From the NCBI GenBank assembly GCA_964642545.1, contig CAZXQU010000001.1:111797-175796 (forward strand): a DNA stretch of 64,000 bases, written 5' to 3'. A model generated the notes under the pieces. It searched no databases, was not told where the DNA came from, and worked only from the letters and a program-made list of their open reading frames with translations. Both the position numbers and the translations under genes were made by a program. Source of the DNA: an uncultured Prolixibacteraceae bacterium (GTDB taxonomy: Bacteria; Bacteroidota; Bacteroidia; Bacteroidales; FEN-979). How positions within the stretch are numbered: the first letter of the stretch is position 1; every line of letters begins with the position of its first letter. Positions 7,361-60,127 of the stretch are shown here, piece after piece.

Positions 7361-7402
7361 AATGACGAATTAATTTCCTAATTTCGTATTACGTATTTTG
7401 TA
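7361..7402. repeat. Heptamer array (6 units) in a divergent promoter region
   Basis: The units are AATGACG AATTAAT TTCCTAA TTTCGTA TTACGTA TTTTGTA in one register, ending on the ORF-track ATG at 7402. Confidence 0.5.
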
Positions 7403-7425
7403 TGTCAATTTTCAATATACCCCCC

Positions 7426-7896
7426 ATGAAAATAGTATTTTATCTCCTCGCCATTGCAGCCGTCGTTCTGCTTCTCTGGTCGGGTTGTTCAAGAAATAAC
7501 CCTACTCCCCCCTCTACGGCAGTTTACTCTGTTAATGGCGGGACCACCAGCCATAATAATGGTCAGGTTTGTTTAACCTGTCACAGGACTGGAGGAACCG
7601 GCAAATACAACTTTATTATTGCCGGGTCTGTTTTTAAACAAGATCTTTCCACACCGTCACCAAACGGGATTCTGTACTTCTGGTCGGGATCAGGTGGCAC
7701 GGGAGACCTTATTGCTACGCTACAGGTTGATGCCAACGGTAATTTTTTCACAACATCCTCACTCTTGCCCGGCGAGGGAGCCTATCTACAAATGAGAGGT
7801 ATCTCAGGGGCAGTAAAGACAATGCCTATACTGGCTTATACAGGAGATTGCAACTCCTGTCATGGTGTAAATGAGGATCCGATCTGGATAAACTAA
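7426..7896 (+). CDS. Small lipoprotein with two CxxCH motifs
   Basis: It has a lipobox signal MKIVFYLLAIAAVVLLLWSGC. It carries CLTCHRTGG and CNSCHG. The ATG at 7426 is preferred over the one at 7402. Confidence 0.6.
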   Translation: MKIVFYLLAIAAVVLLLWSGCSRNNPTPPSTAVYSVNGGTTSHNNGQVCLTCHRTGGTGKYNFIIAGSVFKQDLSTPSPNGILYFWSGSGGTGDLIATLQVDANGNFFTTSSLLPGEGAYLQMRGISGAVKTMPILAYTGDCNSCHGVNEDPIWIN

Positions 7897-7915
7897 CCCC
7901 CAAAAATGAGAAGTC

Positions 7916-7956
7916 ATCCCCTTCAGGGGATTTAAGGGCGAGTCGGGGGATTTAGG
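7916..7956 (-). repeat. Two copies of the AAATCCCC(T/C) motif plus a short hairpin, directly after the ftcD stop
   Basis: The minus strand after the ftcD stop reads AACTCCTAAATCCCCCGACTCGCCCTTAAATCCCCTGAAGGGGAT. The hairpin is ATCCCC (7916-7921) / GGGGAT (7926-7931). Confidence 0.4.
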
Positions 7957-7958
7957 AG

Positions 7959-9644
7959 TTATGCGATTTTTGCAGCAACAATCCCCAGGATCTCCTCCTC
8001 TTTGACTTTTGTCTTTTCCACAATTTCGTCAGCTTCTTTCAGCAAGGCATCCAGGAATGTTTTGTCTTTCAGTCCGGAAGCGTTGATCTTCACATTGAGG
8101 TAGGCGCCAATTACAGCAGAACGGGCACAGAGGGCTCCCACGCCGGCATCGGAAACTGAATTCGGATTTCCTGTTTCAGCCATTGCCTGGATGATCTCCA
8201 TTGATTCATAAGCACGTTTCATTGTGCGGAAGGGAATATCGATGGCATATTTCGTCGCCTCCTGGATGGCAGTAGAACGAGCAGTTTTCTCTTCGTCTGT
8301 TCCTTTAGGGAGGCTGAAAGCATCCATGATGCGGTTGAATGCGCGGGTATCTTCATCTACCAGGTAGAGCAGTTCGTCCTTGATCTTCTGACCTTTTTCG
8401 GCCCAGTCGGAGAACTCTTTCCACCGATCGTCCCAACCGGCTTTATGTGAGGAGAGGTTAGCTACCATTGTAGCGAGAGAGATTCCCAGCGCTCCGATGT
8501 AAGCAGAAACGGATCCACCGCCAGGTGCCGGAGATTCGGAAGCGGTTTCGTTGGCAAACCCTTTGCAGGTCATGCTGATCAGTTTCTCCTGCAAGGGATC
8601 TTCCAGCAGGTATTCAATGATCTTCTCTTTCGGGTTGAATGGCTTCAGGTCATCGAGCCCGAGCGACTTCACTGCGATTTTGATGATTTCCTCTTCTGAG
8701 ACACCCGTTGACCGATTCTGTTTTTCCAGGAAATATTTTCCGGCATCAATCATCGCTTTTTTGGGAACGAGCCCTACCAGTTCCGATCCGGTGACGCGCA
8801 TTCCTCTCTCCTGGGCCTTTTTACAGGTCTCTTCGAAGGCTACATGCACGGGAGTAATGCTGATATTGGTGAGGTTGATCGAGATCTGGGCGATGCCATA
8901 CTCCTCGATGAACCAGCCGATTGCTTTACATGCTTTCAATGACCCAGGGATCCATATCTCCTTCCCGTTTGCATCCAGTTTCTTTCTCCCGGTAATCGAA
9001 TTCCCTTCCCGTACAGGGCGTCCTCTCTCGCGGATATCATAAGCGACAGAATTAGCACGGCGTGTAGAAGTGGTATTAAGATTTATGTTGTAGGCAACCA
9101 GGAAATCCCTGGCGCCAATGGCGATTGCGCCAGTATGCGGGTTGAATTTGGCAGGGCCGAAGTCGGGTTTCCATTTCGGATCTTTCAACTTTTCGGGCAA
9201 CCCTTCGTATTCACCGGCACGACAGGTAGCCAGGTTGGTGCGTTCGGGAGTGAAGGCGGCATTTTCGTAGCAATAGACTGGAATCTCCAACTCATTCCCA
9301 ACCCCTTCGGCCAGCTTATGTGCATACGCAGCAGTCTCTTCCATGGTTATGTTTGCAATTGGCACCAGAGGGCATACATCGGTAGCCCCGAAACGGGGAT
9401 GTTCCCCATGATGCTTGCTCATGTCAATGATCTGGCCTGCTTTTTTAACAGCCTGAAAAGCAGCTTCAATTACGGCATCCGGAGTTCCTACAAATGTCAC
9501 AACAGTGCGGTTAGTAGCCTTACCGGGATCGACATCCAGGAGTTTCACCCCTTCGATCTTCTCAATTTCGTCGGTGATTTGTTTTATGACGGCCATATCG
9601 CGGCCTTCTGAGAAGTTGGGGACGCATTCGATGAGTTGTTTCAT
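7959..9644 (-). CDS. ftcD: Bifunctional glutamate formimidoyltransferase / formimidoyltetrahydrofolate cyclodeaminase
   Basis: 561 aa. The N-terminus MKQLIECVPNFSEGRD matches formiminotransferase. The C-terminal domain with SPAPGGGSVSAYIGALG matches cyclodeaminase. Confidence 0.9.
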   Translation of the reverse strand: MKQLIECVPNFSEGRDMAVIKQITDEIEKIEGVKLLDVDPGKATNRTVVTFVGTPDAVIEAAFQAVKKAGQIIDMSKHHGEHPRFGATDVCPLVPIANITMEETAAYAHKLAEGVGNELEIPVYCYENAAFTPERTNLATCRAGEYEGLPEKLKDPKWKPDFGPAKFNPHTGAIAIGARDFLVAYNINLNTTSTRRANSVAYDIRERGRPVREGNSITGRKKLDANGKEIWIPGSLKACKAIGWFIEEYGIAQISINLTNISITPVHVAFEETCKKAQERGMRVTGSELVGLVPKKAMIDAGKYFLEKQNRSTGVSEEEIIKIAVKSLGLDDLKPFNPKEKIIEYLLEDPLQEKLISMTCKGFANETASESPAPGGGSVSAYIGALGISLATMVANLSSHKAGWDDRWKEFSDWAEKGQKIKDELLYLVDEDTRAFNRIMDAFSLPKGTDEEKTARSTAIQEATKYAIDIPFRTMKRAYESMEIIQAMAETGNPNSVSDAGVGALCARSAVIGAYLNVKINASGLKDKTFLDALLKEADEIVEKTKVKEEEILGIVAAKIA

Positions 9645-9652
9645 AATATGAA

Positions 9653-9684
9653 GTGATGGAGTGATGGAGTGATGAGGTGATGAT
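9653..9684. repeat. Octamer array (4 units) in the ftcD leader
   Basis: The units are GTGATGGA GTGATGGA GTGATGAG GTGATGAT. Confidence 0.7.
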
Positions 9685-9735: not shown

Positions 9736-9803
9736 GTAAAAAGGGATTATCTGTGAAAATCAGTTTCATCTGTGCCATCTGTGTTCCATATTTTTTTAAT
9801 TCT

Positions 9804-9811
9804 TAAATTTG
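9804..9811 (+). promoter_or_regulatory. -7 promoter box TAAATTTG
   Basis: It matches TAnnTTTG, 24 nt upstream of the ATG at 9835. Confidence 0.45.
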
Positions 9812-9834
9812 AGCCCCAATCAATAAACAAAACC

Positions 9835-11880
9835 ATGAAAAAGTATTTATTCCTATTGCTGATTCCGGCAATCTTCGTTCTTACCCAATGTCAGGAAGCC
9901 AAAAAAGAGCAAACTGTGCGGTATATAACCCAAAACGTGATCGACTCTGTTGTCGACCGGATTGTGGCAAATTACGACGAAGAAGAGTATTTCTATGTCT
10001 CCATGGGCGTAACCCAGGTCGCGAACCTCTGGCGGGAGAGTGACGGGACTGTTGCCGACTTTGAGGCCTTCTGTGAGAAGAATTACATCTATGACGGCGT
10101 TGCACGCAGAAACCTGTTTCTCAGGCTCTCCTCTAATTTCGAGACCATTTTCGGCCACAACAATATGGTCAGCCTGCGGTTGAAAGAGCCTGTGCATCTC
10201 TCCACCTACGAGATGCTGGACGTAGATGAGACCTTTGCCGCCTATGAGCCTGGAGCCCACTTTACGGATGACTTTTTTGCCATCAAGATCGCATTCATCA
10301 CGGCACTCAACTTCCCGAACTATACGCTGGAGCAAAAGACCAAATATGCAGACCGGTGGAAACGCCTCGAGTGGGGATATGTCCGGATGGGAGACATGTT
10401 TACATCACGGGTTCCTGCAGAGGTCAATCAGAAAGTCGCCGAAGCCCTTTCGGCATCCGACAACTACATCTCCGGATACAACATTTGGGTAGGGAACCTG
10501 GTGGACGACCAGATGCAGACCCATTTTGCAAAGGATATGAAACTCCTCTCCCACTGGAACCTCCGCGACGAGCTGAAGGCAAACTATAATGGCGGCGACG
10601 AAGGACTGCTGAAACAGCAGATGATCTATGAAGTGATGCTCCGTATCATCAGCCAGGAGATCCCTGAAGCCGTAATCGATAATCCCGACCTTCAGTGGAA
10701 TCCAACTACAAACAAAGTCTACAAGGATGGACAGGAAGAGGCAGTAACTCCTGAACCGGATACTCGGTACCGGACGCTTCTGAACAACTTTAAGGCCATG
10801 GAACTTGTTGACCCATATACGCCCGATTATCCTACTTTCATCCAACGGGCATTCGACGGGGGTATGGAGATCTCCCAAGCCGATGTAGAAAAGGCCTTCA
10901 CGGAGCTTTGTTCTTCGGAGCAGGTAAAGAAAGTGGCTGATCTGATCAAAAGCCGGCTGGGTCGCGACCTGCAGCCCTTCGATATCTGGTACGACGGCTT
11001 CAAGGCTCGCAGTGGACTCGACCAGGAGATGCTCACGAGGATGACCCGGGAGAAATATCCCAATACGGCAGCGTTTGAAAAAGACATTCCGAATATGCTG
11101 ATGAAGCTAGGATTTAAACCCGACAAAGCCAAAGAGATCGCCTCTCATATCACCGTAGATCCCGCCAGGGGTTCGGGCCATGCCTGGGGAGCCTCCATGA
11201 AGGGGGACAAGGCGCATTTACGCACACGAATCGGTCCTGATGGGATGGACTACAAAGGGTATAATATTGCCATTCATGAGCTGGGACATAATGTGGAGCA
11301 GACCATCTCCCTCTACTTTGTGGATTATTACATGCTGCAGGGGGTTCCTAACACCGCTTTTACTGAAGCATTAGCTTTTACATTCCAGAAACGCGATCTG
11401 GAGCTGCTGGGTTTTCCCAACAGGGATCCCAACAAGGATGCTATGGAGGCGCTTGATATCTTCTGGGGCGCCTATGAGATTATGGGTGTTTCGCTGGTTG
11501 ACATGGCCGTATGGAAATGGCTCTATGAGCACCCGGATGCCACTGCATCAGAGCTGAAAGAGATTGTAATCACCACTGCAAAAGAGGTGTGGAACAAGTA
11601 CTTTGCAGAAGCTTTCGGTGTAACCGATTCCCCAATCCTTGCGATCTACTCCCACATGATCGACAATCCACTTTACCTCTCTAACTACCCGGTAGGCCAC
11701 CTGATCGACTTCCAGCTGGATGGTTACCTGAAAAGGAAGAACTTTGCCGATGAAGTACTCAGGATATACACACAGGGCGACATCATCCCACAGTATTGGA
11801 TGCAAAAGGCAGTAGGTTCACCGATCAGTATTCAGCCGTTGCTGGAGGCCACGGAGGAAGCGCTTAATGTTGTCAAGTAA
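9835..11880 (+). CDS. Lipoprotein, putative zinc metallopeptidase (HExxH)
   Basis: It has a lipobox signal (MKKYLFLLLIPAIFVLTQC) from the ATG at 9835; the track start at 9772 is a GTG extension. It has a single HELGH motif (NIAIHELGHNVEQT). The family is not recognised beyond that. Confidence 0.55.
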   Translation: MKKYLFLLLIPAIFVLTQCQEAKKEQTVRYITQNVIDSVVDRIVANYDEEEYFYVSMGVTQVANLWRESDGTVADFEAFCEKNYIYDGVARRNLFLRLSSNFETIFGHNNMVSLRLKEPVHLSTYEMLDVDETFAAYEPGAHFTDDFFAIKIAFITALNFPNYTLEQKTKYADRWKRLEWGYVRMGDMFTSRVPAEVNQKVAEALSASDNYISGYNIWVGNLVDDQMQTHFAKDMKLLSHWNLRDELKANYNGGDEGLLKQQMIYEVMLRIISQEIPEAVIDNPDLQWNPTTNKVYKDGQEEAVTPEPDTRYRTLLNNFKAMELVDPYTPDYPTFIQRAFDGGMEISQADVEKAFTELCSSEQVKKVADLIKSRLGRDLQPFDIWYDGFKARSGLDQEMLTRMTREKYPNTAAFEKDIPNMLMKLGFKPDKAKEIASHITVDPARGSGHAWGASMKGDKAHLRTRIGPDGMDYKGYNIAIHELGHNVEQTISLYFVDYYMLQGVPNTAFTEALAFTFQKRDLELLGFPNRDPNKDAMEALDIFWGAYEIMGVSLVDMAVWKWLYEHPDATASELKEIVITTAKEVWNKYFAEAFGVTDSPILAIYSHMIDNPLYLSNYPVGHLIDFQLDGYLKRKNFADEVLRIYTQGDIIPQYWMQKAVGSPISIQPLLEATEEALNVVK

Positions 11881-11886: not shown

Positions 11887-11928
11887 GATACGAGATGCGG
11901 GATACGCGATGGGAGTCAGGAGGTGGTA
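11887..11928. repeat. Heptamer array (6 units)
   Basis: The units are GATACGA GATGCGG GATACGC GATGGGA GTCAGGA GGTGGTA, starting 7 nt after the stop at 11880. Confidence 0.5.
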
Positions 11929-11995: not shown

Positions 11996-13492
11996 ATGAA
12001 ACGGATCCTATACATCCTTCTTCTCTGCTTTCCCTTTGCATTATCAGCCCAAAACTGGCAGAATATCTGTTCGCCAGGGGTGACACTCTATCAAAACTCC
12101 GGAGGAGAGATTCAGGCATTCAGGCTGGATTCCATTCAGGTGCCAGGCAATGGGGATACCATTTTTTATTCATACCATACCATCAGGGAGACGCAACCGT
12201 GTGCCGACACCTCCCATGGGTCCGTCCTGGGGTTCAAGGTATACAAGACATCTAATGGCTGGTTCTACTTTTTTAACAAATCCTGGGATACGTTGAAGAT
12301 TAACACCAATGCATCATTAAGTGATTCCTGGAAATTCTGTAACCTGCCGGATTCAGGTTTCGTTGAGGCAACAGTTTCAGAGATCGTGACTGACACCATC
12401 CTGGGCATGGCTGATTCAGTGAAAACCATTCTTTTTCAAGCCTACGACTCCACGGGGAATGTTTTAACTCATGTCATCAACGGCCGGACAGTTTCCCTCA
12501 GTAAATCTCATGGCATGACCGTGATGGCAGAGGTCTACCTCCTCCCCGGTGCCTTTTCGAAGTATAAACTTGCAGGAACTACAATTCCGGAAGCCGGTAT
12601 CCCAAATCTGAATGAGCGGTTGGTCTATGATTTTAATGTGGGAGACGAGTTCCATTACCAGGGTGCTGATACATACCAAACTGGGCATGTTACCTGGACC
12701 TACTGGAAAAGGATAATTACGATCCTTTCCAAGCAGATTTCAGCCACCGGTAACGCTTTTATTTACCAGGCAAAGCGATGCACACACTTGGATATCGTCC
12801 CTCCTTTTACCTGGGGACCTCCCTATGTCGAAAATTACCATGACACTATTATACTCGTGTTCCCACGCTCTTCTTCCATTACTGATACTTCACGACTGAA
12901 ACTACCTGGAACGTTTTTTAGAAATGACTTCAGCGTGGCTGCAAATAACTATTTGAGGGATTTCAATGGTCCAAACAACAGACAAAGGCAAATCATCCGA
13001 AAAAATTTCTACCGTTGCCAGGATAGCTGCTGGCTCCCTGAACAGGCGTACCGTGGCTGGAATGAATATGCAGAAGGGATTGGCTGTTTGTTCGATGGAT
13101 GGGGTGTTGAATATACAACAGTCGGTCTACGCATGTTTTACGAAGATAAGCTTGTCTACTATAGGAAAGGAGATGAAGAGTGGGGAACACGACTTGCTGC
13201 TGATTGCGATCAATTGCTGGGAACAGATGAGCTTCAGGTTTCAGGTTCCTGGTTTCAGGTTTTTCTTTATCCAAACCCTCTTCATAACCAGATGACGTTG
13301 ACTATCGAAGGATTTAAACCGGGAATCCGCACCGATTTCATTTTATACGATTTCCTGGGAAGGGAAGTCTACCAAACAGTCATCCGGCAGAATGAGGTAA
13401 CACTAAATCGACCGCCAATACCCAATGGTTTATATATCTGGAAGGTGACAGGCGATCTGGGAACAGCTACGGGGAAGCTGGTGTTGGAATAA
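11996..13492 (+). CDS. Secreted hypothetical protein with T9SS C-terminal sorting domain
   Basis: It has a signal peptide (MKRILYILLLCFPFALSAQ). The C-terminus is FLYPNPLHNQMTL...GLYIWKVTGDLGTATGKLVLE. Confidence 0.7.
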   Translation: MKRILYILLLCFPFALSAQNWQNICSPGVTLYQNSGGEIQAFRLDSIQVPGNGDTIFYSYHTIRETQPCADTSHGSVLGFKVYKTSNGWFYFFNKSWDTLKINTNASLSDSWKFCNLPDSGFVEATVSEIVTDTILGMADSVKTILFQAYDSTGNVLTHVINGRTVSLSKSHGMTVMAEVYLLPGAFSKYKLAGTTIPEAGIPNLNERLVYDFNVGDEFHYQGADTYQTGHVTWTYWKRIITILSKQISATGNAFIYQAKRCTHLDIVPPFTWGPPYVENYHDTIILVFPRSSSITDTSRLKLPGTFFRNDFSVAANNYLRDFNGPNNRQRQIIRKNFYRCQDSCWLPEQAYRGWNEYAEGIGCLFDGWGVEYTTVGLRMFYEDKLVYYRKGDEEWGTRLAADCDQLLGTDELQVSGSWFQVFLYPNPLHNQMTLTIEGFKPGIRTDFILYDFLGREVYQTVIRQNEVTLNRPPIPNGLYIWKVTGDLGTATGKLVLE

Positions 13493-13562
13493 ATTAGCGA
13501 TTAGGGATTAGGGATTTATATTAGGCATCTGTCATCTGGCATCCGGTATCCGGTATCTACTT
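13493..13562. repeat. Heptamer array (10 units) filling the whole spacer between two convergent stop codons
   Basis: The units are ATTAGCG ATTAGGG ATTAGGG ATTTATA TTAGGCA TCTGTCA TCTGGCA TCCGGTA TCCGGTA TCTACTT. It starts at the base after the TAA at 13490-13492 and runs into the hutI stop at 13561-13563. Confidence 0.8.
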
Positions 13563-14964
13563 ACAGAACGACCTTTCCATTGAGTATTACGGATTCCACC
13601 TTATTACTTCCATACGCGTATGGCATGAACTCATAGGTCGACATTGGCTTGGTAATAAACAGGTTGGCCTTTTTCCCTCTTGCGATGCTTCCAAGCTCAT
13701 CGCTCACTCCCATTGCATAAGCGCCATTAAGGGTAGTGGCAAAAATGGCCTCTTCGGGAAGAAGCCGGTAGGTGATGCAGGCCATGGAAAGAATCAGTTG
13801 CATATTTCCGGAAGGGCTGGAACCTGGATTGAAATCGCTTGCGAAGGCAACCGGTAATCCAGCATCGATCATCCTGCGGGCTGGTGCGGCGATCATGTTG
13901 AGGAAGAAGGCTGCGCCAGGAAGAATAACCGGCATGGTTTCAGAATTTGCCAGGGAGGCTATCTCCCTTTTGCCTGTGTATTCGAGGTGGTCGACCGAAA
14001 GGGCATTGTACTTCACCCCTACCTGGATGCCACCTGAGTAGTCGAGTTCGTTGGCATGGATCTTCGGCCTCAACCCATACTTCATTCCGGCATTGAGTAT
14101 CCTGTCAGTCTCATCCACGGTAAAGAAGCCTTTGTCGCAGAATACGTCGATATAGTCGGCCAACTCTTCGGAGGCCACCTGTGGAATCATCTCATGGATC
14201 ACCAGGTCGACATACTCCCCCTGCCTCCCTTTGTATTCAGCCGGAACGGCATGAGCTCCCAAAAAGGTAGAGACGATCGTCAACGGTGATAACTCCTTTA
14301 ATTTCCTGATCACCCGGAGCATCTTCAGTTCATCCTCAACAGTCAGCCCATAACCGCTTTTGATCTCAACTGCTCCTGTTCCAAAAGCAATGATCTCGTT
14401 CAATCGCCCCATCGCCTGCTCAACCAGTTCCTCTTCAGAGGTATGGTGAAGCAGTTTTGCCGAGTTCAGTATCCCTCCTCCCCGTTTGGCGATCTCTTCA
14501 TAGCTCAGCCCCTTGATTTTATCAACATATTCGATCTCCCGGCTTCCAGCGTAGACCAAGTGTGTATGGGCGTCGCAGAAAGAGGGGAAGACGAAACAAC
14601 CGGAGGCGTCGACGATCTGAATGTCATTGTATTGACGAAGGTTGTGGAATATTGTGGCCTGTGACTCGTGACCCATGACTGGCGGTGAAGGTGGAGAAAG
14701 TGAAGTAGGTGGAGAAAGTAGTGAAGGTGGTGAGTTGTTTTCAAAGAGTTCATAATGCTTTATTCCGGTAGCAGAGAGACTGGATTGGATTTCAGATGGT
14801 ATCGTGTCCATCGATCCGAAATCCTTAATCTTGTCTCCTTCGATCAGCAACCAGGCATTTTTAAGTGTTTTCAGATGCGACATCTCTTTCCCGGCCACAA
14901 GGGGTTTGGGGTTTTCTTCGATGTTAACAAGCTCTTTGATGTTGGTGATGAGGATCGACTTCAT
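13561..14964 (-). CDS. hutI: Imidazolonepropionase
   Basis: It has the amidohydrolase metal motif CDAHTHLVYAGSREIEY and KGLSYEEIAKRGGGILNS, and family-like sequence through the C-terminus. At 467 aa it is longer than I expect for the family because of a low-complexity insert near the N-terminus. Confidence 0.9.
   Translation of the reverse strand: MKSILITNIKELVNIEENPKPLVAGKEMSHLKTLKNAWLLIEGDKIKDFGSMDTIPSEIQSSLSATGIKHYELFENNSPPSLLSPPTSLSPPSPPVMGHESQATIFHNLRQYNDIQIVDASGCFVFPSFCDAHTHLVYAGSREIEYVDKIKGLSYEEIAKRGGGILNSAKLLHHTSEEELVEQAMGRLNEIIAFGTGAVEIKSGYGLTVEDELKMLRVIRKLKELSPLTIVSTFLGAHAVPAEYKGRQGEYVDLVIHEMIPQVASEELADYIDVFCDKGFFTVDETDRILNAGMKYGLRPKIHANELDYSGGIQVGVKYNALSVDHLEYTGKREIASLANSETMPVILPGAAFFLNMIAAPARRMIDAGLPVAFASDFNPGSSPSGNMQLILSMACITYRLLPEEAIFATTLNGAYAMGVSDELGSIARGKKANLFITKPMSTYEFMPYAYGSNKVESVILNGKVVL
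14680..14733. repeat. In-frame 18-nt x3 tandem repeat inside hutI, encoding SPPSLL SPPTSL SPPSPP
   Basis: The plus strand reads GGTGAAGGTGGAGAAAG / TGAAGTAGGTGGAGAAAG / TAGTGAAGGTGGTGAG. It corresponds to hutI residues 78-95. Confidence 0.65.
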
Positions 14965-15069: not shown

Positions 15070-17196
15070 ATGAAAAGAATCACCCTTCTCTTTTCCCTTT
15101 TATTTTTAGTGATCACCTTGTCTGTATTTGCTAAAAAAGTCGAGGTAAGCCAGGCCCGTCAGGCCGGTCTGAACTTCTATTACGAACGTGCCAATATCAA
15201 TCAGAACATATCCTTTGATGCCCTGCTGATTACCGGTGAAACAATTGTTACAGAAAACGATATCACGGCCTACTACATTTTTGACATCGGTGACAACGGA
15301 TATATCATCGTTACGGCCGACGACCAGCTTTATCCTGTGATCGGGTATTCTTTCGAGACATCCTGGTCGAATGAAGAGTTACCTGCTCACGTGCAATTCT
15401 GGCTTAACAACTACAAAGGCGAAATCCTTGAAGCCATTACTCAGGGATATCCTGCTGATCAACAGATCACTGGTGCCTGGGAACGTTACAGTTCACCCAA
15501 TCCCGTTACCCTTCCCGATGAACCATTACTGGATGTGGAACCAATGATCACCAACACCTGGAACCAGGACTTCCCCTACAACGCAATGTGTCCGGAAGAC
15601 CCAGCACCGGGTGGTTCCTATTACGGACACGTACCGGTTGGTTGCGTTGCCACGGCTATGAGCCAGATCATGCATTACTGGCGCTGGCCCGAAACAGGAG
15701 TTGGTTCGCACTGCTACACACCCCCACAATCTCAGTATGGACAACAGTGCGCCGATTTTGGCAATACCACCTACGAATGGGACGGAATAGTTGATCACAC
15801 CTCAAAACAGTGCGATCCTGTTGCTTTGCTCTCATGGCATTGCGGCATCTCGGTGAATATGATGTACGGACCAACCGGATCCGGGGCATACACTGACGAC
15901 GTACCTAATGCCCTTAAGAACTATTTCAAGTACTCCACAAGTGCTTATTACGCTCATAAATATGCTTATCCCACCACACAATGGAATAACCTACTTAAAA
16001 CTGACCTGGATGCCGGCAGACCAATTGAATATTCGGGAACTGGTGGCGGCGAGGGCCATGCCTGGGTTTGCGACGGATATCAGGGAACTGATTACTACCA
16101 TATGAACTGGGGTTGGGGTGGTAACTACAACGGCTATTTCTACCTGAATGGCCTAAATCCCGGAGGATACACGTTCAACAGTGACCAAGGAGCCGTATTG
16201 CAGATCCATCCTGATCCTTCGATGTACCCTACCTATTGCAGTGGGCAGACCGACCTAATCACAAATGATTTCGGAGCATTTGAGGATGGAAGCGGGCCAC
16301 TGGAAAATTACGAGAGCGATGCCAACTGCTCATGGTTGATCGCCCCGGATGATGGTGTGGAAAGTGTATCTGTTTCGTTCCTTCGTTTCGACCTGGCTTC
16401 GGGCGATGAACTCAACATTTACGATGGCAACTCTGCCAGCGCTACCCTGATCGGAACTTACACCGGCACCTCGTTGCCTCCCACTGTCACCTCTACCGGC
16501 CCTGAAATGTTTATTGCCTTTACTACCAATGAAACAGGAACCGCACAAGGATTTCTTGCTGAGTATGACTGCAACATGATCACTTTCTGCGCATCCAGCA
16601 CCAACCTTACTGACCCGTCAGGAGATATCAGCGACGGAAGCGGCGACTTAGATTACCGCAATAGTACATTGTGCAAATGGTACATCAAACCAACCAATGC
16701 TGAAACCGTGATTCTGAATTTTAGCAGTATCAATACGGAAGAGACGAATGACAGAATCCAGGTCTATGATCTTGGCTCCGGAACTCTTTTAGGTAATTTC
16801 TCCGGCAATATGACCAACCCGCCAACAGGACTTGTTGCCCCGAGTGGCGAGATGTTACTCTTGTGGAGCAGTAACAAAACCATCAGAGGTATTGGTTGGG
16901 AAGCAAGCTATACAATTACTGTAAGCACTGAAGAGTCGGCAGCCGTGGATAACCTCTATGTCTATCCCAACCCGGTCCATGATTATCTGATGGTGAAATT
17001 TGACGGAACTTCGCTTCGTACGGTTCAGATCGATCTTTACTCGCTGAAGGGAACGAAAATCTACAGTGGTGTTCGATCGAATGTGAACGGACAGGTGGAA
17101 GAGCGTATCAACCTGAGTGGCGTTTCAAAAGGCGTATACATGCTCCGGATTACCAGCGAGCAAGGAGTATCGAATACGAAAGTAGTCGTACAATAG
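15070..17196 (+). CDS. Peptidase C10 (streptopain-like cysteine protease) with CUB-like domains and T9SS CTD
   Basis: 708 aa with a signal peptide and an N-terminal propeptide-like region. The catalytic Cys context is VGCVATAMSQIMHYWRWPETGVG and the His context is GHAWVCDGY. It has CUB-like modules (NCSWLIAP...LNIYDG; LCKWYIKP...IQVYD). The CTD is YVYPNPVHDYLMV...GVYMLRITSEQGVSNTKVVVQ. Confidence 0.85.
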   Translation: MKRITLLFSLLFLVITLSVFAKKVEVSQARQAGLNFYYERANINQNISFDALLITGETIVTENDITAYYIFDIGDNGYIIVTADDQLYPVIGYSFETSWSNEELPAHVQFWLNNYKGEILEAITQGYPADQQITGAWERYSSPNPVTLPDEPLLDVEPMITNTWNQDFPYNAMCPEDPAPGGSYYGHVPVGCVATAMSQIMHYWRWPETGVGSHCYTPPQSQYGQQCADFGNTTYEWDGIVDHTSKQCDPVALLSWHCGISVNMMYGPTGSGAYTDDVPNALKNYFKYSTSAYYAHKYAYPTTQWNNLLKTDLDAGRPIEYSGTGGGEGHAWVCDGYQGTDYYHMNWGWGGNYNGYFYLNGLNPGGYTFNSDQGAVLQIHPDPSMYPTYCSGQTDLITNDFGAFEDGSGPLENYESDANCSWLIAPDDGVESVSVSFLRFDLASGDELNIYDGNSASATLIGTYTGTSLPPTVTSTGPEMFIAFTTNETGTAQGFLAEYDCNMITFCASSTNLTDPSGDISDGSGDLDYRNSTLCKWYIKPTNAETVILNFSSINTEETNDRIQVYDLGSGTLLGNFSGNMTNPPTGLVAPSGEMLLLWSSNKTIRGIGWEASYTITVSTEESAAVDNLYVYPNPVHDYLMVKFDGTSLRTVQIDLYSLKGTKIYSGVRSNVNGQVEERINLSGVSKGVYMLRITSEQGVSNTKVVVQ

Positions 17197-17225: not shown

Positions 17226-19385
17226 ATGAAAAGGATTTGTTTGCTTCTCGTCGCCATCACAACTCTGGGATTCAACACGTTTCCAGGTACTATATCCGCC
17301 GACAAGGCTTCCATGGCAGCTATCCGGTTTATCTCTGAACGGATCTCCCCGGATCTTTTATCAGATGTTGGTGATGTTGCCGTTACGGAAAGTTTTATTA
17401 TCAAGGATCAGGAGATACCTCTTTATTATATTTTCAACCTGATGCCTGAAGGGTGGATTGCCGTTGCTGCTAATGATGCAGTATTCCCAATTCTTGCATA
17501 CTCCTATGAAGGCAGGTATGATGAATTGCGTCAGGCGCCACAATTCCTCGCCTGGATGAAGCAATACGAAGATCAGATCCTGTATGCGATCCGCGGAAAC
17601 GTTTCCCCTTTCCCCGAGACTGTAGAGATGTGGAACAGGCTGTCAGATGCCAGATACCAGATGCCGGATGCCGGATCTAATCCACTCGTCTCTCGTCCAT
17701 CGTCCATCGTCCATCGCAGTATCGAGCCCCTGATAACAACCCACTGGGACCAGAGCCCCTGGTACAATGAACTTTGTCCGGGTGACAATGGAAGCCATTG
17801 TCCGGCCGGGTGCGTTCCCGTTTGCATGGCCCAGGTCATGTACTACTTCAGATGGCCCGAAACCGGAGTGGGTTCGTATACCTACACTGAACCAACATTT
17901 GGCGTATTATCTGCTGATTTCGGGGCCACAACCTACCGGTGGAACGAGATGACCACCAGCATTAACCGGAGTAACCTGGCCATCGCTGAGCTTATTTATC
18001 ACCTGGGAGTCTCATGTGATCTGGAGTATACCCCATCTGGATCGGGCATGTATAACCATAAGGCTGCCTTTTCGTTAAGGACATATTTCAAATATGCTCC
18101 CGAAACCCAATACCTATACCGCGACAGCACCACCCTCAACTGGGACAGCGTTTTGATTGCACACCTCGACAGAAAAATCCCGATGTACTATGCGGGCTGG
18201 TCGGTTCCTAATAGCGACGGCCATGCTTTTGTTTGCGACGGTTACCAAGACTCCTCCTTCTTTCATTTTAACTTTGGATGGGGTGGTAGTAGTGATGGCT
18301 ACTTCTACACGAGCGACCTCACCCCAGGCGGCTACAACTTCAACCTGGCCCAGGAAGTTGTGATCAACTGCTTCCCCGATACGGTAAACTACACCTACCC
18401 CTCGCAGTGCGCCGGCGACCTGGAGTTTACTGCAAAAGTGGGTTCATTTGAAGATGGAAGTGGTCCAGTTGATGATTACTCCCCTGATGCCAATTGCAGC
18501 TGGATGATTGGCCCCCAAACTTTGATCGACTCGGTAACCAGTATCACGTTGACGTTCGACCGGTTTGCCACCAATCCGGCAGATTTTGTTACTGTGTATG
18601 ACGGGAAAACAACAGGCGCGCCTGTTCTGGGTTCCTTTTCCGGAAGCCTTCTTCCTCCCGAAATCACCTCTTCAGGGAATAACATGTTGGTCACTTTTGA
18701 AGCAGGGGAACAACCTCCAGATAATGGCTTTCTAGCCCACTACAAAGCCAACTTGCCGGTTTGGTGCAGCGGAACCACTACAATAACTGCCGACTCAGCG
18801 GAAGTCTCGGATGGTAGCTTCGATTTCAACTATTATAACAACTCCTCTTGTAAATGGAGATTAGAGACCGAAACAGGGGACCCTCTTACCATCTACTTTG
18901 ACTATTTTGATACCGAGGCTAATCATGATTTCCTGACCATTTACGACCTGGAGACAGGAGATACTCTGGTGAGTTTATCAGGAGAATACACTTCGGGCAA
19001 CCATCCTGATTCAGTTACCTCACCCAGCGGAAAGATGTTTCTCATCTTCACGACGAATAGTACCATTACATTTAATGGCTGGAAGATCCACTACCCGAAA
19101 AAGTCCAACATCGGCATCACAGAACAAAACGGCATCCGGAACCTTCAGCTCTTCCCAAATCCGGCATCAGAGGTTGTTACTATCTCTTTCACTTCAGCCA
19201 AAACATCACACATTCACTTGACCCTTCTCTCTTCTGATGGGCGTATCGTTCGTGAATTAAGCTTGGAAGCGATTTCAGGGAAGAATACAAAAGAGACTGA
19301 TATTTCAGAGATAAAGCCTGGAATCTACATCCTGCAACTTACAGGTGACTTGGGAACAGCGGTAGAGAAGCTGGTGGTTAACTAA
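17226..19385 (+). CDS. Peptidase C10 paralogue with CUB-like domains and T9SS CTD
   Basis: 719 aa with the same architecture as the upstream gene. It has PAGCVPVCMAQVMYYFRWPETGVG and GHAFVCDGY, CUB-like modules (NCSWMIGP; SCKWRLET), and the CTD LFPNPASEVVTISF...GIYILQLTGDLGTAVEKLVVN. Confidence 0.85.
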   Translation: MKRICLLLVAITTLGFNTFPGTISADKASMAAIRFISERISPDLLSDVGDVAVTESFIIKDQEIPLYYIFNLMPEGWIAVAANDAVFPILAYSYEGRYDELRQAPQFLAWMKQYEDQILYAIRGNVSPFPETVEMWNRLSDARYQMPDAGSNPLVSRPSSIVHRSIEPLITTHWDQSPWYNELCPGDNGSHCPAGCVPVCMAQVMYYFRWPETGVGSYTYTEPTFGVLSADFGATTYRWNEMTTSINRSNLAIAELIYHLGVSCDLEYTPSGSGMYNHKAAFSLRTYFKYAPETQYLYRDSTTLNWDSVLIAHLDRKIPMYYAGWSVPNSDGHAFVCDGYQDSSFFHFNFGWGGSSDGYFYTSDLTPGGYNFNLAQEVVINCFPDTVNYTYPSQCAGDLEFTAKVGSFEDGSGPVDDYSPDANCSWMIGPQTLIDSVTSITLTFDRFATNPADFVTVYDGKTTGAPVLGSFSGSLLPPEITSSGNNMLVTFEAGEQPPDNGFLAHYKANLPVWCSGTTTITADSAEVSDGSFDFNYYNNSSCKWRLETETGDPLTIYFDYFDTEANHDFLTIYDLETGDTLVSLSGEYTSGNHPDSVTSPSGKMFLIFTTNSTITFNGWKIHYPKKSNIGITEQNGIRNLQLFPNPASEVVTISFTSAKTSHIHLTLLSSDGRIVRELSLEAISGKNTKETDISEIKPGIYILQLTGDLGTAVEKLVVN

Positions 19386-19417
19386 TTTCCTACTTTCCTA
19401 CTTTCCTACTCACTCTC
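19386..19417. repeat. Octamer array bridging two convergent stop codons
   Basis: The units are TTTCCTAC TTTCCTAC TTTCCTAC TCACTCTC. It starts at the base after the TAA at 19383-19385 and contains the minus-strand stop (rc of 19406-19408). Confidence 0.7.
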
Positions 19418-19825
19418 CGGCGTATAAAGGATATCAATCTCCCCCTTATTCTCCAGACACTCCATCAACTTGCTTTTAAGTTTCCAGCAGGTCATCTGGC
19501 GGATTTCAAGTTGACGGGAGAGCTCGTATGAGGATATTTTCGGGTTGGAGCAAACCATGTAGACCATGTTGAATGCCTCTGTAATAGGGATATGGCATCG
19601 GTGAAAAATGGTGTTCGCAGTAGCCGATTCTTCGCTTTTACAGCGAGTACAACGTCTTGAGTAAGGTGTCTTTCCCTTGCAGTAATTTGAATGTCCGCAT
19701 TTCTTACAGACAAATCCCTTTGCCCATTTTTGCTCGGAAAGAAACTGAAGGCACTCTTCGTCGGTTGCAAATCGGACCGCAAATTTTTCAATATCTAGAG
19801 ACTTGAACAAATGTTTCAATTTCAT
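19406..19825 (-). CDS. IS1595-type transposase zinc-ribbon domain protein lacking a DDE catalytic domain
   Basis: 139 aa. CKKCGH...CTRC is a four-Cys ribbon followed by a helix-rich segment, as in the N-terminal region of IS1595-family transposases. No DDE domain ORF and no terminal inverted repeats were seen nearby. Confidence 0.55.
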   Translation of the reverse strand: MKLKHLFKSLDIEKFAVRFATDEECLQFLSEQKWAKGFVCKKCGHSNYCKGKTPYSRRCTRCKSEESATANTIFHRCHIPITEAFNMVYMVCSNPKISSYELSRQLEIRQMTCWKLKSKLMECLENKGEIDILYTPESE

Positions 19826-20416: not shown

Positions 20417-20448
20417 TCATCACCTTCATCACTCCATGACTTCATGAC
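20417..20448. repeat. Imperfect 8-9 nt array after the thioredoxin stop
   Basis: The units are TCATCAC CTTCATCAC TCCATGAC TTCATGAC, which is the reverse complement of the GTGATG family. Confidence 0.5.
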
Positions 20449-20893: not shown

Positions 20894-20929
20894 CCGCAGT
20901 GGGACTTGTGCCTGCTGCGGTTTTTTTTT
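20894..20929 (+). terminator. Rho-independent terminator
   Basis: The stem CCGCAG (20894-20899) / CTGCGG (20915-20920) is followed by T9 (20921-20929), downstream of trxA. Confidence 0.75.
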
Positions 20930-20930
20930 A

Positions 20931-20970
20931 CTTTCGTATTTTCCTAATTTCCTATTTTCCTAATTCCCTA
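20931..20970. repeat. Octamer array (5 units) abutting a start codon
   Basis: The units are CTTTCGTA TTTTCCTA ATTTCCTA TTTTCCTA ATTCCCTA, followed immediately by the ATG at 20971. Confidence 0.7.
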
Positions 20971-25570: not shown

Positions 25571-25584
25571 GACGTGAGACGTTT
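25522..25584. repeat. Heptamer array (9 units) followed by a T8 run
   Basis: The units are GACGAGG GACGAAG GACGAGG GACGAAG GACGTGA GACGTGA GACGTGA GACGTGA GACGTTT, then TTTTT. TGA occurs in all three frames, and the third TGA (25568-25570) is the stop of the preceding gene. Confidence 0.85.
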
Positions 25585-37183: not shown

Positions 37184-37191
37184 AAAATGTT

Positions 37192-46892: not shown

Positions 46893-46963
46893 AACTTAAA
46901 TTAATCGTAACTGGTTCTTAAAAGGGGTGCAAAGTTAAAGGAAAATATCGAGGGAAAAAAGTA

Positions 46964-46998
46964 CTGCCTACTGCCCACTGCCAACTGAAGACTGCTCC
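46964..46998. repeat. Heptamer array encoding the C-terminal tail and stop of the O-antigen-ligase-like gene
   Basis: The plus strand reads CTGCCTA CTGCCCA CTGCCAA CTGAAGA CTGCTCC. In the gene sense this is the CAGTGGG family, encoding EEQSSVGSGQ and the stop. Confidence 0.65.
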
Positions 46999-54570: not shown

Positions 54571-54586
54571 AAATCCCCTTTAGGAG
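54571..54586 (+). repeat. AAATCCCCT motif copy just after the purD stop
   Basis: AAATCCCCTTTAGGAG begins 7 nt after the TGA at 54562-54564. Confidence 0.35.
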
Positions 54587-54589: not shown

Positions 54590-54624
54590 ATTCGTAACTC
54601 TTAATTCGTAATTCGTAATTTAAA
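54590..54624. repeat. Heptamer array (5 units) abutting a GTG start
   Basis: The units are ATTCGTA ACTCTTA ATTCGTA ATTCGTA ATTTAAA, followed by the GTG at 54625. Confidence 0.7.
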
Positions 54625-55621: not shown

Positions 55622-56218
55622 ATGCTCCAAAGCCACTATACCAAAGATCTTGTTGAAGCGGGGTGTGACGAGGCCGGAAGAGGCTGCCTGGCCGGGCCAC
55701 TGTTTGCTGCTGCCGTGATCCTCCCAAAAGGGTATAAACACCCTTTGCTCAACGACTCTAAACTACTATCAAAACTCCAACGCGAAAGATTACGGAAGGA
55801 GGTAGAGAAAGATGCCCTCGCTTTTGCAATCAGCTGTATAGAGGCTCAAACCGTTGATGAAATTAATATCCTCAATGCCTCTTTCCTGGGGATGGAGGAG
55901 GCCGTCAAACAGCTAACGCTGACGCCAGAATTTCTGCTGATTGATGGGAACCGATTTCGGACAAAACTTGAAATTCCTTACCATTGTATTGTGAAGGGCG
56001 ATGGGAAATTCCTCTCCATCGCTGCTGCATCGATACTTGCCAAGACCTACCGCGACGACTACATGGAGCTTCTGCACGAATCTTTCCCGGTTTATCGGTG
56101 GAATGAGAACAAAGGATACCCGACGCCGGCACACAGGAAAGCCATCTCGACACACGGAATCTCACCGCATCACCGCATCAGCTTCCGGCTGAAACCTCAA
56201 GTGAAAATTTTATTTTAA
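55622..56218 (+). CDS. rnhB: Ribonuclease HII
   Basis: It has [27 protein letters not shown] and ASILAK. Confidence 0.9.
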
Positions 56219-59028: not shown

Positions 59029-59035
59029 TCTCTAT

Positions 59036-59980
59036 CTATCTCATTCTCAATACTTTTCCTGTCGGAGGTTCATAACCGTCAGGAAGAAGATTTTTACGAT
59101 AGAGGTTTTCCAGGCGGATTCCATAAACCTGGGAAATTTCCCACAAGGTTTGATTGGTTCCAACAACGTGCACTTTTTGGATGGCTTTTCGCTTCTTTTT
59201 CTCAAGGTAAACCGCTTGTCCTGATTTCAAGCCACCGGCACGTTTTAGATCATTAAAATCCATCAGGTCTGATGCACTAAGCCGAAAATCACGTGCAATC
59301 TTCAGAAGGTCGTCGTTATCGAGGGCAAAGGTACATTGGACATGATTATTGATATAGACTTTCCGGTTGTTTGGACCCGGGCCAAAGTAGGTAAATAAGG
59401 ACTTGTAGGCCTCCATCAGGTTGCCATCGGCCACAGTAGTTATTATTGCCGGAACCTCTCCTTCGGGAAGATCATATGCTTGAAGGGAGTAACGTTCGAT
59501 CAGACTGATCAGCAGATCAGGATATTTAGGGTTAGTGGCATAGCCAGCTGTTTTCAGTCCATAAGCCCATGCCCGGTAGTTTTGAACATCAATTGAGAAG
59601 AGAAAATTATACCGATCACGGGTTGACAGGAACTCTGAATGATCGCGAAATGACTCAACTGCATTATCGTATTTCCGGAAGCATTCATCTGGTGAATCAT
59701 CATCCATCCGGTAGGTTTTACCCGTCCACTCATTATGACATTTGATCCCGAAATGGTTGTTGGCTTCCCTGGCAAGTGTACTCTGGCCAGCTCTTGACTC
59801 CAGAATAGCCTGGGCTAGTTTGATGCTGGCAGGGATACCATACGTTCGCATGTCCTGTATCGAGATTCCCTTATAGGCATCAATGTATGCACGAACCTTC
59901 TCATCGTACGAGGATTGAGAAAGCGCTGAGAGGGATGAGAAGACCAGGATTAGCAGGAGGTAGCGGGAGAAGGAGGTCAT
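59036..59980 (-). CDS. Glucosaminidase-domain peptidoglycan hydrolase with LysM domains
   Basis: It has a signal peptide and GIPASIKLAQAILESRAGQSTLAREANNHFGIKC (mannosyl-glycoprotein endo-beta-N-acetylglucosaminidase domain). C-terminal LysM-like segments are present (HVVGTNQTLWEISQVYG). Confidence 0.85.
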   Translation of the reverse strand: MTSFSRYLLLILVFSSLSALSQSSYDEKVRAYIDAYKGISIQDMRTYGIPASIKLAQAILESRAGQSTLAREANNHFGIKCHNEWTGKTYRMDDDSPDECFRKYDNAVESFRDHSEFLSTRDRYNFLFSIDVQNYRAWAYGLKTAGYATNPKYPDLLISLIERYSLQAYDLPEGEVPAIITTVADGNLMEAYKSLFTYFGPGPNNRKVYINNHVQCTFALDNDDLLKIARDFRLSASDLMDFNDLKRAGGLKSGQAVYLEKKKRKAIQKVHVVGTNQTLWEISQVYGIRLENLYRKNLLPDGYEPPTGKVLRMR

Positions 59981-60127
59981 AGTTTCGGGTTTCGTGTTTC
60001 GGGTTTCGTGTTTCGGTTCACTAGTTAACGGTTATCCGTATTTCGTATTTCGTATTTCTCTTCACGTCTCACATCTCACGTCTCACATCTCACGTCTTAC
60101 GTCTTACGTCTTACGTCTTACGTCCCC
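59981..60127. repeat. Heptamer array, 21 units (147 nt) in one unbroken register
   Basis: The units are AGTTTCG GGTTTCG TGTTTCG GGTTTCG TGTTTCG GTTCACT AGTTAAC GGTTATC CGTATTT CGTATTT CGTATTT CTCTTCA CGTCTCA CATCTCA CGTCTCA CATCTCA CGTCTTA CGTCTTA CGTCTTA CGTCTTA CGTCCCC. It begins at the base after the start codon (rc of 59978-59980). It contains the murD-like stop (rc of 60104-60106) and its last 7 codons. Confidence 0.9.

Follow-up and report, generated by a model that had tools for sequence, protein, structure and literature searches.

Heptamer and octamer tandem arrays with a common strand rule at gene borders of an uncultured Bacteroidales bacterium

Introduction

Why some bacteria accumulate tandem heptamer arrays, hundreds per genome, has been asked since the short tandemly repeated repetitive (STRR) sequences were described in 1990. 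The question is raised again by a 64,000-nt stretch of an uncultured Prolixibacteraceae bacterium (contig CAZXQU010000001.1, positions 111,797–175,796; hereafter the window, numbered from its first letter), in which head-to-tail arrays of 7- or 8-nt units recur at many gene borders. An initial annotation, made from the letters alone, had described them as a dispersed family occupying short intergenic spacers. What are these arrays, what rule governs their placement, and how might they have arisen? Their anatomy and statistics, the positional and strand rule that they follow, their local seeding and their turnover between species are observed; the explanation that we favour, with moderate confidence, is that they are simple-sequence filler generated by slippage, with selection on the transcript acting as a filter of position and orientation. 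The finding is tidy and real, not new in kind, and provides good comparative material for the old question on heptamer arrays.

Detection of the arrays

Arrays were detected with Tandem Repeats Finder (TRF) and with a lag-autocorrelation scan of our own, using strong and looser thresholds. TRF returned 57 rows for the window, mostly with periods of 7, 8 and multiples of these. In the scan, eight arrays of period 7 and five of period 8 passed the strong threshold; the looser one yielded 29, of which 20 have period 7 and nine period 8, with none of period 5, 6 or 9–13, so that heptamers are the dominant unit length. Periods 2–6 and 9–13 were not enriched; the matches at 14, 16 and 21 represent multiples of the two basic periods. 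No array of any period appeared in 20 dinucleotide-preserving shuffles of the window, so that within it periods 7 and 8 are enriched over shuffled sequence (29 arrays against none).

Sixteen of the 20 starts listed in the initial annotation correspond to clear arrays and four to weak or degenerate ones (7381–7403, 11887–11914, 14685–14730 and 20424–20448); seven further arrays had been overlooked (Table 1). The run of 147 nt said to show no slip of the register (59981–60127) consists of three different arrays with gaps of 21 and 3 nt, and the longest unbroken in-register runs measure 63 nt (60062–60124) and 61 nt (25522–25582). Likewise, the GACGTGA array placed at 33489 is a lone occurrence of 1.3 units at the aroA stop codon.

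Contigs from six samples (JGI 3300028298, SRR8437274, SRR8437247, SRR8437217, ERZ27248962 and ERZ27248920), assembled independently from metagenomes by three pipelines, match the window at 99.96–100% identity with no indels in the arrays that they cover. The arrays, the absence of which from independent assemblies the initial annotation would have counted against them, are thus present there and unchanged. Several contigs do start or end within arrays, as might be expected of an assembly or sequencing artefact; but identical arrays in six samples and three pipelines, in-frame arrays within conserved genes and homologous arrays in metagenome-assembled genomes (MAGs) of other species reduce the chance of such an artefact to a negligible one. 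The dispersed 7/8-nt arrays are real, and they behave as breakpoints of short-read assembly, which gives them relevance to MAG quality.

Three contigs illustrate the latter behaviour: L002 and L370, from short-read assemblies, stop within the 63-nt GACGTAA/GACGTGA array (60062–60124), and L150 begins within the 8-nt array at 37294 (37266–37296). A fourth, L147 (ERZ27248962), matches the window over 16.3 kb and then diverges inside the ATTCGTA array at 28519–28551; the 132 nt beyond that point (L147 positions 16294–16425) have no occurrence in the window. Two arrays of the same family may have recombined here, or the contig may end in an assembly tip.

Placement at stops, starts and coding loops

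Arrays account for 606 of the 3605 intergenic bases of the window (17%), and several short spacers consist of array sequence to 69–100%. To that extent the arrays do lie in intergenic spacers, as first described; they also run across stop codons and occur within protein linkers and loops, and about 362 array bases (0.6% of coding bases) fall inside open reading frames (ORFs). Seven of the nine divergent, promoter-bearing spacers of the window are free of arrays.

Post-stop arrays begin a few bases from the stop codon or run across it. The array itself supplies the stop of the Mur ligase gene (60062–60124, encoding the last seven residues and TAA), of the Wzy-type gene (46962–46987) and of a 65-aa ORF (25373–25570, plus strand), the last ~15 residues and TGA of which are formed by the array at 25522–25582. 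Located directly behind FeoAB, this small ORF encodes a protein with a CxxCxxxCGGC motif and a transmembrane segment, and has a weak, sub-threshold match to Pfam PF12669 (FeoB_associated; E 5e-4) and none in NCBIfam.

In eight arrays of the window the distance from the array end to a downstream start codon is at most 12 nt. Where aroA adjoins the gene for a CCG-domain protein, the −7 box conserved in Bacteroidetes (TAnnTTTG) precedes 3.3 units of TCCCTAA in the window and 5.7 units in a close relative (L004). At the same junction of two other loci (L006 and L008) the box and the ATG are just 6 nt apart; the array has thus lengthened the 5′ untranslated region (UTR). The array at 9648–9683 also sits between a TAnnTTTG box and the ATG, and its folding energy of −0.2 kcal/mol marks it as unstructured. 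Most of the remaining pre-start arrays lack such a box in the spacer and are probably operon-internal. Seeding of arrays from the −7 box was rejected: suggestive in L006 and L008, it is mismatched to the families of the window.

Coding arrays occupy tolerant sites, among them the linker between the I69 and C10 domains (Pfam domains at aa 22–118 and 174–360, arrays at aa 140–164), the linker before a type IX secretion system (T9SS) sorting domain (array-encoded aa 413–422, with Por_Secre_tail right behind at aa 424–496) and a loop of AroA. The two arrays within aroA, the coding arrays for which the frame was checked, are read through in frame. In AroA (33490–34815, minus strand) the hypervariable insert follows the 'GVxL' strand and reads WAVGSGQLAVGSWQ in the window; it is lacking in the typical homologues of about 419 aa and in solved structures. 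Members of the clade measure 434–525 aa, and their inserts differ greatly in length and consist of 7-residue repeats that heptamers encode, for example RPSSLVP in P0003. Such in-frame repeats reveal how arrays generate protein length variation. In some relatives AroA has two more variable insert sites. The 441-aa form of the window's AroA has an exact match in the protein database, and the long GTG-start ORF has none.

The strand rule

The arrays obey a simple rule of orientation: the G-rich strand, read 5′ to 3′, points away from the nearest ORF end. Behind stop codons, G exceeds C on the sense strand in 10 of 11 arrays of the window, in 11 of 14 arrays of relatives and in 22 of 23 scorable metagenome loci, the units of which lie outside the GACGTGA family. 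Before start codons, the window has less G than C on the sense strand in six of seven arrays (mean sense G 0.08), and over all sets C exceeds G in 16 arrays, with the opposite in seven. Co-oriented spacers consequently show the purine-rich array first and the pyrimidine-rich one second (33370–33489, 37184–37291 and 59981–60103).

The same polarity is seen far from the window. Intergenic GACGTGA arrays on metagenome contigs have a 5′ neighbour on the same strand in 50 cases and on the opposite strand in 17; they lie nearer the 5′ gene in 48 cases and nearer the 3′ gene in 19, with a gap to the stop of the 5′ gene of mostly −21 to +9 nt. In viral contigs the corresponding counts are 55 against 16 for AGGCTGA and 24 against 8 for ATTAGGG. 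Several dispersed AGGCTGA arrays each were noted in some phage or prophage contigs (L282–L361; e.g. IMGVR_UViG_3300044675_004707 and 3300042299_000283), so dispersed heptamer families with polar placement exist in viral genomes too. Orientation relative to the direction of replication was rejected as a cause of the rule, one and the same family being found on both strands within the window.

This positional and strand rule has been reported by Rehm et al. 2015 (PMC4692102) for the heptamer repeats of Xanthomonas (GGGAATC) and Nostoc PCC 7120 (GGGGAYT). Those repeats resemble the window arrays in being dispersed intergenic tandem heptamers, found most often where neighbouring ORFs are co-oriented and seldom within coding sequence or between divergent ORFs, in lying nearest the 5′ ORF, in having the G-rich strand as sense at the stop and as antisense before the start, and in differing in length and sequence between related species. 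Unlike them, the window arrays belong to another phylum, comprise at least seven families instead of one, have 8-nt units in one third of cases, and mostly consist of units without a G-tract (GACGTGA, ATTCGTA, TTTCCTAA, CGAAACA). Tandem GGGAATC or GGGGATT was found neither in the window nor in L004, L005 and L010; none of the window families has four consecutive tracts of three or more Gs intact, and GGG occurs only in the CAGTGGG and ATTAGGG families. The strand rule thus extends here to units lacking a G-tract and to a further phylum. Since such units obey it, the G-quadruplex is no common denominator of the arrays and is unlikely to cause their polarity; the combination of mostly G-tract-free units with the Xanthomonas/Nostoc polarity argues against it as a general explanation. 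Taken together with Xanthomonas and Nostoc, the polarity in unrelated metagenome and viral contigs points to a general process and not to a lineage-specific factor.

Structure of the array spacers

Do the array spacers form RNA structure? The folds of ten array spacers gave z-scores of −2.3 to +1.5 relative to shuffled sequences, that is, no extra stability, and pre-start arrays are essentially unstructured. Terminator-like sites occur at chance level in the window, with none in array spacers, so that the arrays are indeed non-palindromic and neither REP-like nor hairpin terminators, as the initial annotation maintained. By folding and terminator scan, no inverted repeat forming a stable hairpin, as in repetitive extragenic palindromes and bacterial interspersed mosaic elements (REP/BIME), miniature inverted-repeat transposable elements (MITEs) or intrinsic terminators, was found in array spacers. 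Rfam covariance models matched no array, their sole match in the window being a flavin mononucleotide (FMN) riboswitch at 818–969. A hairpin, terminator or riboswitch reading was rejected on these grounds. Pairing between the left purine-rich and the right pyrimidine-rich array of a spacer, which amounts to 4–5 bp per unit at most and gives no significant fold, was likewise dismissed, and so was a CRISPR array, the units being contiguous and 7–8 nt long instead of 24–48-nt repeats with unique spacers.

The arrays might nevertheless insulate transcription at gene borders in place of hairpin terminators. Polymerase leaving a gene would make G-rich RNA and hence a stable hybrid, R-loop or pause, and polymerase entering a gene would make C-rich, G-poor and unstructured RNA onto which Rho could load unless a ribosome follows. 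This would suit the symmetry of the strand rule, under which a spacer reads purine-rich and then pyrimidine-rich on either strand, as well as the array-filled convergent spacers without a hairpin terminator and the unstructured, C-over-G pre-start arrays. However, the polarity also holds in Nostoc (PMC4692102), a cyanobacterium. Many arrays, moreover, lie inside operons, where termination would be harmful. Cyanobacteria, to our knowledge, lack Rho, and the polarity in Nostoc therefore conflicts with the Rho-loading model. A typical Rho loading site spans about 70–80 nt, and at 20–60 nt the arrays are shorter. We consider insulation very unlikely.

Unit families and their recurrence

Nine pairs of heptamer arrays in the window share an exact unit, where 0.31 would be expected, and 21 pairs agree within one mismatch (3.7 expected); one family unites four of the nine octamer arrays. 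The claim that identical unit families recur at unlinked loci is confirmed far above chance, across related species as well. Some octamers resemble a heptamer with one base added (TTTCCTAA and TCCCTAA; GAAATAGC and GAAATAC). The families also continue outside the window, as had been predicted: the adjoining 4.5 kb on the left hold two further arrays, AATTACG and AAACACG, both of window families, and exact matches are found in seven of 15 heptamer arrays of the closest relatives. The adjoining 8.9 kb on the right contain no array.

The closest genomes are Bacteroidales MAGs, in keeping with the T9SS sorting domains encoded in the window. The best AroA match among genomes, 'MAG: Bacteroidales bacterium MAG16', is 64% identical; in the protein database the nearest AroA other than the window's own is 65–69% identical, and relatives of intermediate divergence are absent from that database. 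Neighbouring proteins are 80–95% identical, and gene order is kept in L004, L005, L010 and L008. Period-7/8 arrays are as dense as in the window (2–6.6 per 10 kb) in L004, L005, L010 and two Candidatus Aphodosoma genomes, somewhat sparser (1.9 per 10 kb) in L008 and in a Verrucomicrobiota single-cell genome, and absent or nearly so at the loci of Cyclobacteriaceae, Chitinophagales, Saprospiraceae and Flavobacteriales. No significant family sharing was found with Aphodosoma, L006–L008 or the Verrucomicrobiota locus; sharing with L004, L005 and L010 only makes the unit repertoire lineage-specific. Between the CCG-domain gene and Tex, L004 has about 7 kb more than the window (12235–19585 of L004), and this extra DNA holds a 116-nt array of 16 GAAATAC units.

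GACGTGA in three tandem copies occurs in at least 120 metagenome contigs with a GC content of 29–72%. Its wide occurrence is nothing particular, since two heptamers with the same letters in shuffled order have 83 and 87 loci in viral contigs and GACGTGA itself has 2; the idea of a special unit with universal spread was rejected. Arrays of one such control, GGATCAG, lie mostly within ORFs of the viral contigs. Tandem heptamers of many different sequences are common in nature.

Recurrence of this kind could also result from templated or mobile spread, in which new sites at gene ends receive units copied from existing arrays or from RNA as a template, by a non-autonomous element or by telomerase-like synthesis. 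Identical units at unlinked loci and in relatives, and the recurrence of window families outside the window, would fit such copying, and the point at which L147 diverges, precisely within an ATTCGTA array, is a hint of exchange between arrays. That divergence may, however, be an assembly tip; the arrays have no terminal inverted repeats, target-site duplications or conserved flanking ends, neither a reverse transcriptase nor a transposase is associated with them, and viral contigs contain few loci of window families (2, 13 and 32). Given also that arrays are visibly seeded from local coding sequence, as described below, spread by copying appears highly improbable.

Origin and turnover

Strongly syntenic relatives permit ortholog comparison, in which some exact units are kept and others replaced or expanded 20-fold. 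In L004 the GAAATAGC array behind aroA begins within the last aroA codons (GAA ATA GC). At the homologous aroA stop, L010 carries 20 units (CGTGAGA, or GACGTGA in another register) where the window has a single GAGACGTGA. The post-aroA units of five genomes are all different: GGAAATTA, GAAATAGC, CGTGAGA, AGGTGAG and GATTTGT. Seeding from aroA codons and the contrast of 1 with 20 units indicate that local slippage does operate. The initial annotation had taken the recurrence of units to argue against it; the recurrence is indeed above chance, but the aroA-stop arrays of L004 and L010 point to slippage all the same. Units drift stepwise within arrays and form higher-order blocks of 14 and 21 nt, as expected from slippage, and copy number varies between species (1 against 20 units; 3.3 against 5.7).

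On the reading that we favour, short local sequences would serve as seeds from which replication slippage or unequal exchange builds arrays and alters their length; a preference for 7–8 nt would be a property of the slippage process itself. In a compact genome they would survive only where transcribed DNA tolerates extra bases: right after or across stops, ahead of starts within 5′ leaders and at junctions inside operons, and in frame within protein linkers, loops and termini. A deletion bias that strips ordinary spacer DNA, which we infer, would then leave the self-renewing arrays adjoining functional boundaries. Selection at the level of the mRNA would choose the sense strand, favouring after a stop a G- or purine-rich strand that carries stop triplets in all three frames, and before a start one that is G-poor, unstructured and depleted of ATG and GTG. 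The units would constitute a lineage-specific 'library' common to relatives, maintained by exchange between arrays or by weak selection. A filter on codon signals accounts for part of the polarity: stop triplets are present in 21 of 23 post-stop arrays on the sense strand and in 12 of 23 on the antisense strand, and ATG or GTG in 4 and 9 of 24 pre-start arrays, respectively.

Several observations weigh against this explanation. Arrays with stop triplets on both strands still have G>C on the sense strand in 20 cases against 3; because of this the codon filter is insufficient, and we rejected it as the sole cause of the strand rule. All 20 heptamer arrays of the window fall into seven families at one mismatch or less, and the seven exact matches among the 15 heptamer arrays of L004, L005 and L010 compare with 0.33 expected. 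No copy-number polymorphism was seen among the six near-identical population assemblies, which implies that slippage is slow at these array lengths. The favoured period of 7–8 nt is left unaccounted for. Finally, the exact unit has survived in two pairs of orthologous pre-start arrays. The window shares TCCCTAA with L004 and CCCATGAC with L005, where nine units upstream of AlaDH are orthologous to the array in the DUF4440–AlaDH spacer of the window. Four-fold degenerate sites are only 27–52% identical between the window, L004 and L005, i.e. near saturation, and neutral slippage alone does not predict unit retention at such divergence. By our estimate, about 0.1–0.2 exact matches would be expected by chance in some 10 comparisons; the two observed are suggestive of retention beyond chance and leave room for a binding-site or copying mechanism.

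The retained units and the shared repertoire keep alive the alternative that the arrays act as functional cis-elements. Lineage-specific proteins that read the sequence would bind them as multivalent sites on mRNA or DNA, and so tune translation initiation of the gene downstream, or stability or termination of the one upstream. A post-transcriptional model of this kind has been put forward for the TAACTGA repeats and the Nostoc heptamers. Their unit repertoire is limited and common to relatives; their placement, about 12 nt or less from start and stop codons, is strict and strand-polar; some lie within the 5′ UTR downstream of a conserved −7 box, and orthologous pre-start arrays hold identical units despite near-saturated synonymous divergence. 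Binding by S1, Csp or CsrA has been proposed for the TAACTGA repeats (MacGregor 2015, PMC4679880), and deletion of Nostoc heptamer repeats had effects on reporters (preprint 10.1101/2022.06.06.494920). On the other hand, further relatives have a different unit or none at the same junction (the 6-nt gap of L006 and L008), one site may hold anything from 1 to 20 copies, the same families occur in both orientations and in coding loops, and the genes near the arrays include no candidate for a binding protein. Arbitrary heptamers forming polar arrays in unrelated bacteria and phages likewise fit dedicated readers poorly. We therefore regard cis-elements as a tentative possibility. A broader variant, a 'gene-border code' in which families are kept by dedicated factors reading transcript or DNA and the polarity is a general marking of gene ends across Bacteroidota, Proteobacteria, Cyanobacteria and phages, seems to us unlikely.

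Relation to known heptamer repeats

The arrays belong to the known class of heptameric and octameric long simple-sequence repeats (SSRs), within which they have their own multi-family repertoire and mixture of 7- and 8-nt units. That nothing of the kind had been described in Bacteroidota proved incorrect: MacGregor 2015 (PMC4679880) reported TAACTGA arrays, along with heptamer direct repeats of other sequence, from Beggiatoaceae, Cyanobacteria and five Bacteroidetes genomes; in Flexibacter litoralis and Gramella forsetii, for example, 'other heptamer direct repeats' share the spacers with TAACTGA. The TAACTGA repeats likewise form short heptamer arrays a few nt upstream of starts, in one orientation, some of them just past stops, and their taxonomic distribution is sporadic too. 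They differ in that TAACTGA is never tandem in the window (four single copies) or in close relatives, the nearest unit being AACTGAG with eight copies in L010; in that post-stop arrays are as frequent as pre-start ones in the window; and in that no gene for an alternate RNA polymerase beta-prime was seen in the window.

The likeness to the STRR sequences of heterocystous cyanobacteria, to which the arrays had first been compared, is apt at the level of the class: both comprise several heptamer families in many short, dispersed and mostly non-coding arrays. The STRR1–3 units (CCCCAGT, TTGGTCA and CAACAGT) are not tandem here. The host is one of the Bacteroidales, not a cyanobacterium, as its T9SS sorting domains and closest MAGs indicate. 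As STRR sequences are defined by unit and taxon, the window arrays are an analogue and not a member, and by the absence of the defining units or G-tracts they stand outside the STRR, TAACTGA and G-quadruplex sets.

Among prokaryotic long SSRs (units of 5–11 nt) heptamers are over-represented according to Mrazek 2007, as cited in PMC4679880 and PMC4692102, and in the same citations polymerase slippage with a footprint of ~7 nt is the proposed cause. As far as those citations convey, these SSRs share with the window arrays the dominance of heptamers, the mainly intergenic location and the scattered taxonomic distribution. The survey is not known to have highlighted Bacteroidota or described unit families common to species. 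Geobacter has four copies of GGGACCG at 49 sites (PMC2700814), a unit that our check of published units did not find in tandem here. Contingency SSRs, such as the tetra- and heptanucleotide repeats of Haemophilus (PMC2651432), are similarly short tandem units within or upstream of ORFs. In contrast to these, the window arrays comprise 3–9 units, are concentrated at gene ends and not in promoters or 5′ coding regions, do not vary in copy number within the population, and run in frame through housekeeping genes such as aroA. A phase-variable contingency locus was rejected on account of the lack of indels among assemblies and of the two aroA arrays being read through in frame.

Inventory of arrays and other features of the window

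Table 1. Tandem arrays of the window, with their standing relative to the starts listed in the initial annotation.
Positions	Strand	Array and context	Remarks	Initial annotation
7381–7403	+	Weak heptamer array, ATTTCGT-like, 3.3 units; directly 5′ of start codon at 7402	TRF score 32	weak
9648–9683	-	8-nt array; 5′ leader of FTCD gene (7959–9644)	Sense TCATCACC, G-free	clear
11887–11914	+	Degenerate purine-rich heptamers GATACGA GATGCGG GATACGC GATGGGA; just past stop of ORF 9772–11880	Sub-threshold in TRF	degenerate
13233–13262	+	Heptamer TTCAGGT; aa 413–422 of ORF 11996–13492	Linker before T9SS C-terminal sorting domain	overlooked
13493–13516	+	ATTAGGG; begins at base 1 past stop of ORF 11996–13492		clear
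13526–13557	-	Heptamers, sense GATACCG/GATGCCA; 4 nt past stop of amidohydrolase gene 13561–14964		overlooked
14685–14730	-	Period-18 repeat, 2.6 copies (TRF); within amidohydrolase ORF	No clean 7/8-nt array	weak
17644–17716	+	Two neighbouring heptamer arrays, CAGATGC then ATCGTCC	Linker between I69 inhibitor and C10 peptidase domains	overlooked (17644 and 17685)
19382–19410	.	8-nt CTACTTTC; entire 20-nt spacer of two convergent genes	Overlaps both stop codons	clear
20424–20448	+	Weak 8-nt array CATCACTC/CATGACTT; between two thioredoxin genes	TRF score 36	weak
20932–20972	+	TTTCCTAA, 8-nt, 5 units; 5′ of likely true start of WbqC-like gene	G-poor	clear
21438–21469	+	CAGTCGG-family heptamers; inside WbqC-like ORF	Behind Pfam-matching part	clear
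25522–25582	+	GACGAGG/GACGAAG drifting to GACGTGA; 61 nt in register	T8 directly after	clear
28519–28551	+	TAATTCG (ATTCGTA family); 7 nt 5′ of start at 28558		clear
30422–30452	-	ATTCGTA family, sense AATTACG; Tex stop to outer membrane protein (OMP) gene start	Occupies 39-nt spacer	clear
33378–33400	-	Sense TCCCTAA, 3.3 units; 5′ UTR of CCG-domain gene	Between conserved −7 box and ATG	clear
33458–33488	-	Sense GGAAATTA, 8-nt; 2 nt past aroA stop		clear
33710–33732	-	ATCCGGC, 3 units; in frame within aroA	Common to L004 and L010	overlooked
33898–33948	-	CAGTGGG family, 51 nt; in frame in aroA	Encodes WAVGSGQLAVGSWQ, hypervariable clade-specific AroA loop insertion	clear
37193–37296	-	Three 8-nt arrays; DUF4440-to-AlaDH spacer	Sense order GGTGAGAT (post-stop), ATTTCCTA (middle), ATCACCCC/ATGACTTC (pre-start)	clear
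45335–45368	+	CAGTGGG, 5 units; 7 nt past stop of ABC ATPase gene	Identical in L001	clear
45387–45406	-	Sense GACGTAA/GACGTGA, 3 units; adjoins LpxD stop		overlooked
46962–46987	-	CAGTGGG family; overlaps 3′ end of Wzy_C-type gene		clear
54595–54620	+	TAATTCG (ATTCGTA family); 5 nt 5′ of start at 54625	Identical in L001–L003	clear
56162–56180	+	TCACCGCA, 2.4 units; near RNase HII C-terminus	Minor	overlooked
59982–60015	-	Sense CGAAACA/CGAAACC, 5 units; ends 2 nt ahead of glucosaminidase start		clear
60037–60058	-	Sense GAAATAC, 3 units; mid-spacer	GAAATAC arrays also in L004	
60062–60124	-	Sense GACGTAA, 4 units, then GACGTGA/GATGTGA, 5 units	63 nt, longest array of window	

The genes around two of these arrays deserve mention. 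The WbqC-like ORF (20899–21579, plus strand) matches Pfam over profile positions 3–136 of 218 only, and the array at 21438–21469 follows directly; it may have disrupted or replaced the C-terminal region of the protein. One of the convergent genes that meet in the array at 19382–19410, a 139-aa ORF (19406–19825, minus strand) the stop codon of which lies within the array, encodes solely the zinc-ribbon domain of an IS1595-type transposase.

The FMN riboswitch (minus strand; Rfam RF00050, 103.9 bits) lies in a spacer facing the riboflavin operon (ribD, ribE, ribBA and ribH), which extends past the left end of the window. A further motif, AATCCCCTWWAGG, occurs three times (0.37 expected), each time just past a stop codon: at 7920–7932 (minus strand), 28435–28447 (plus) and 54572–54584 (plus). 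Its copies form small CCCCT...AGGGG hairpins, and it may represent a separate REP-like or terminator-like repeat.

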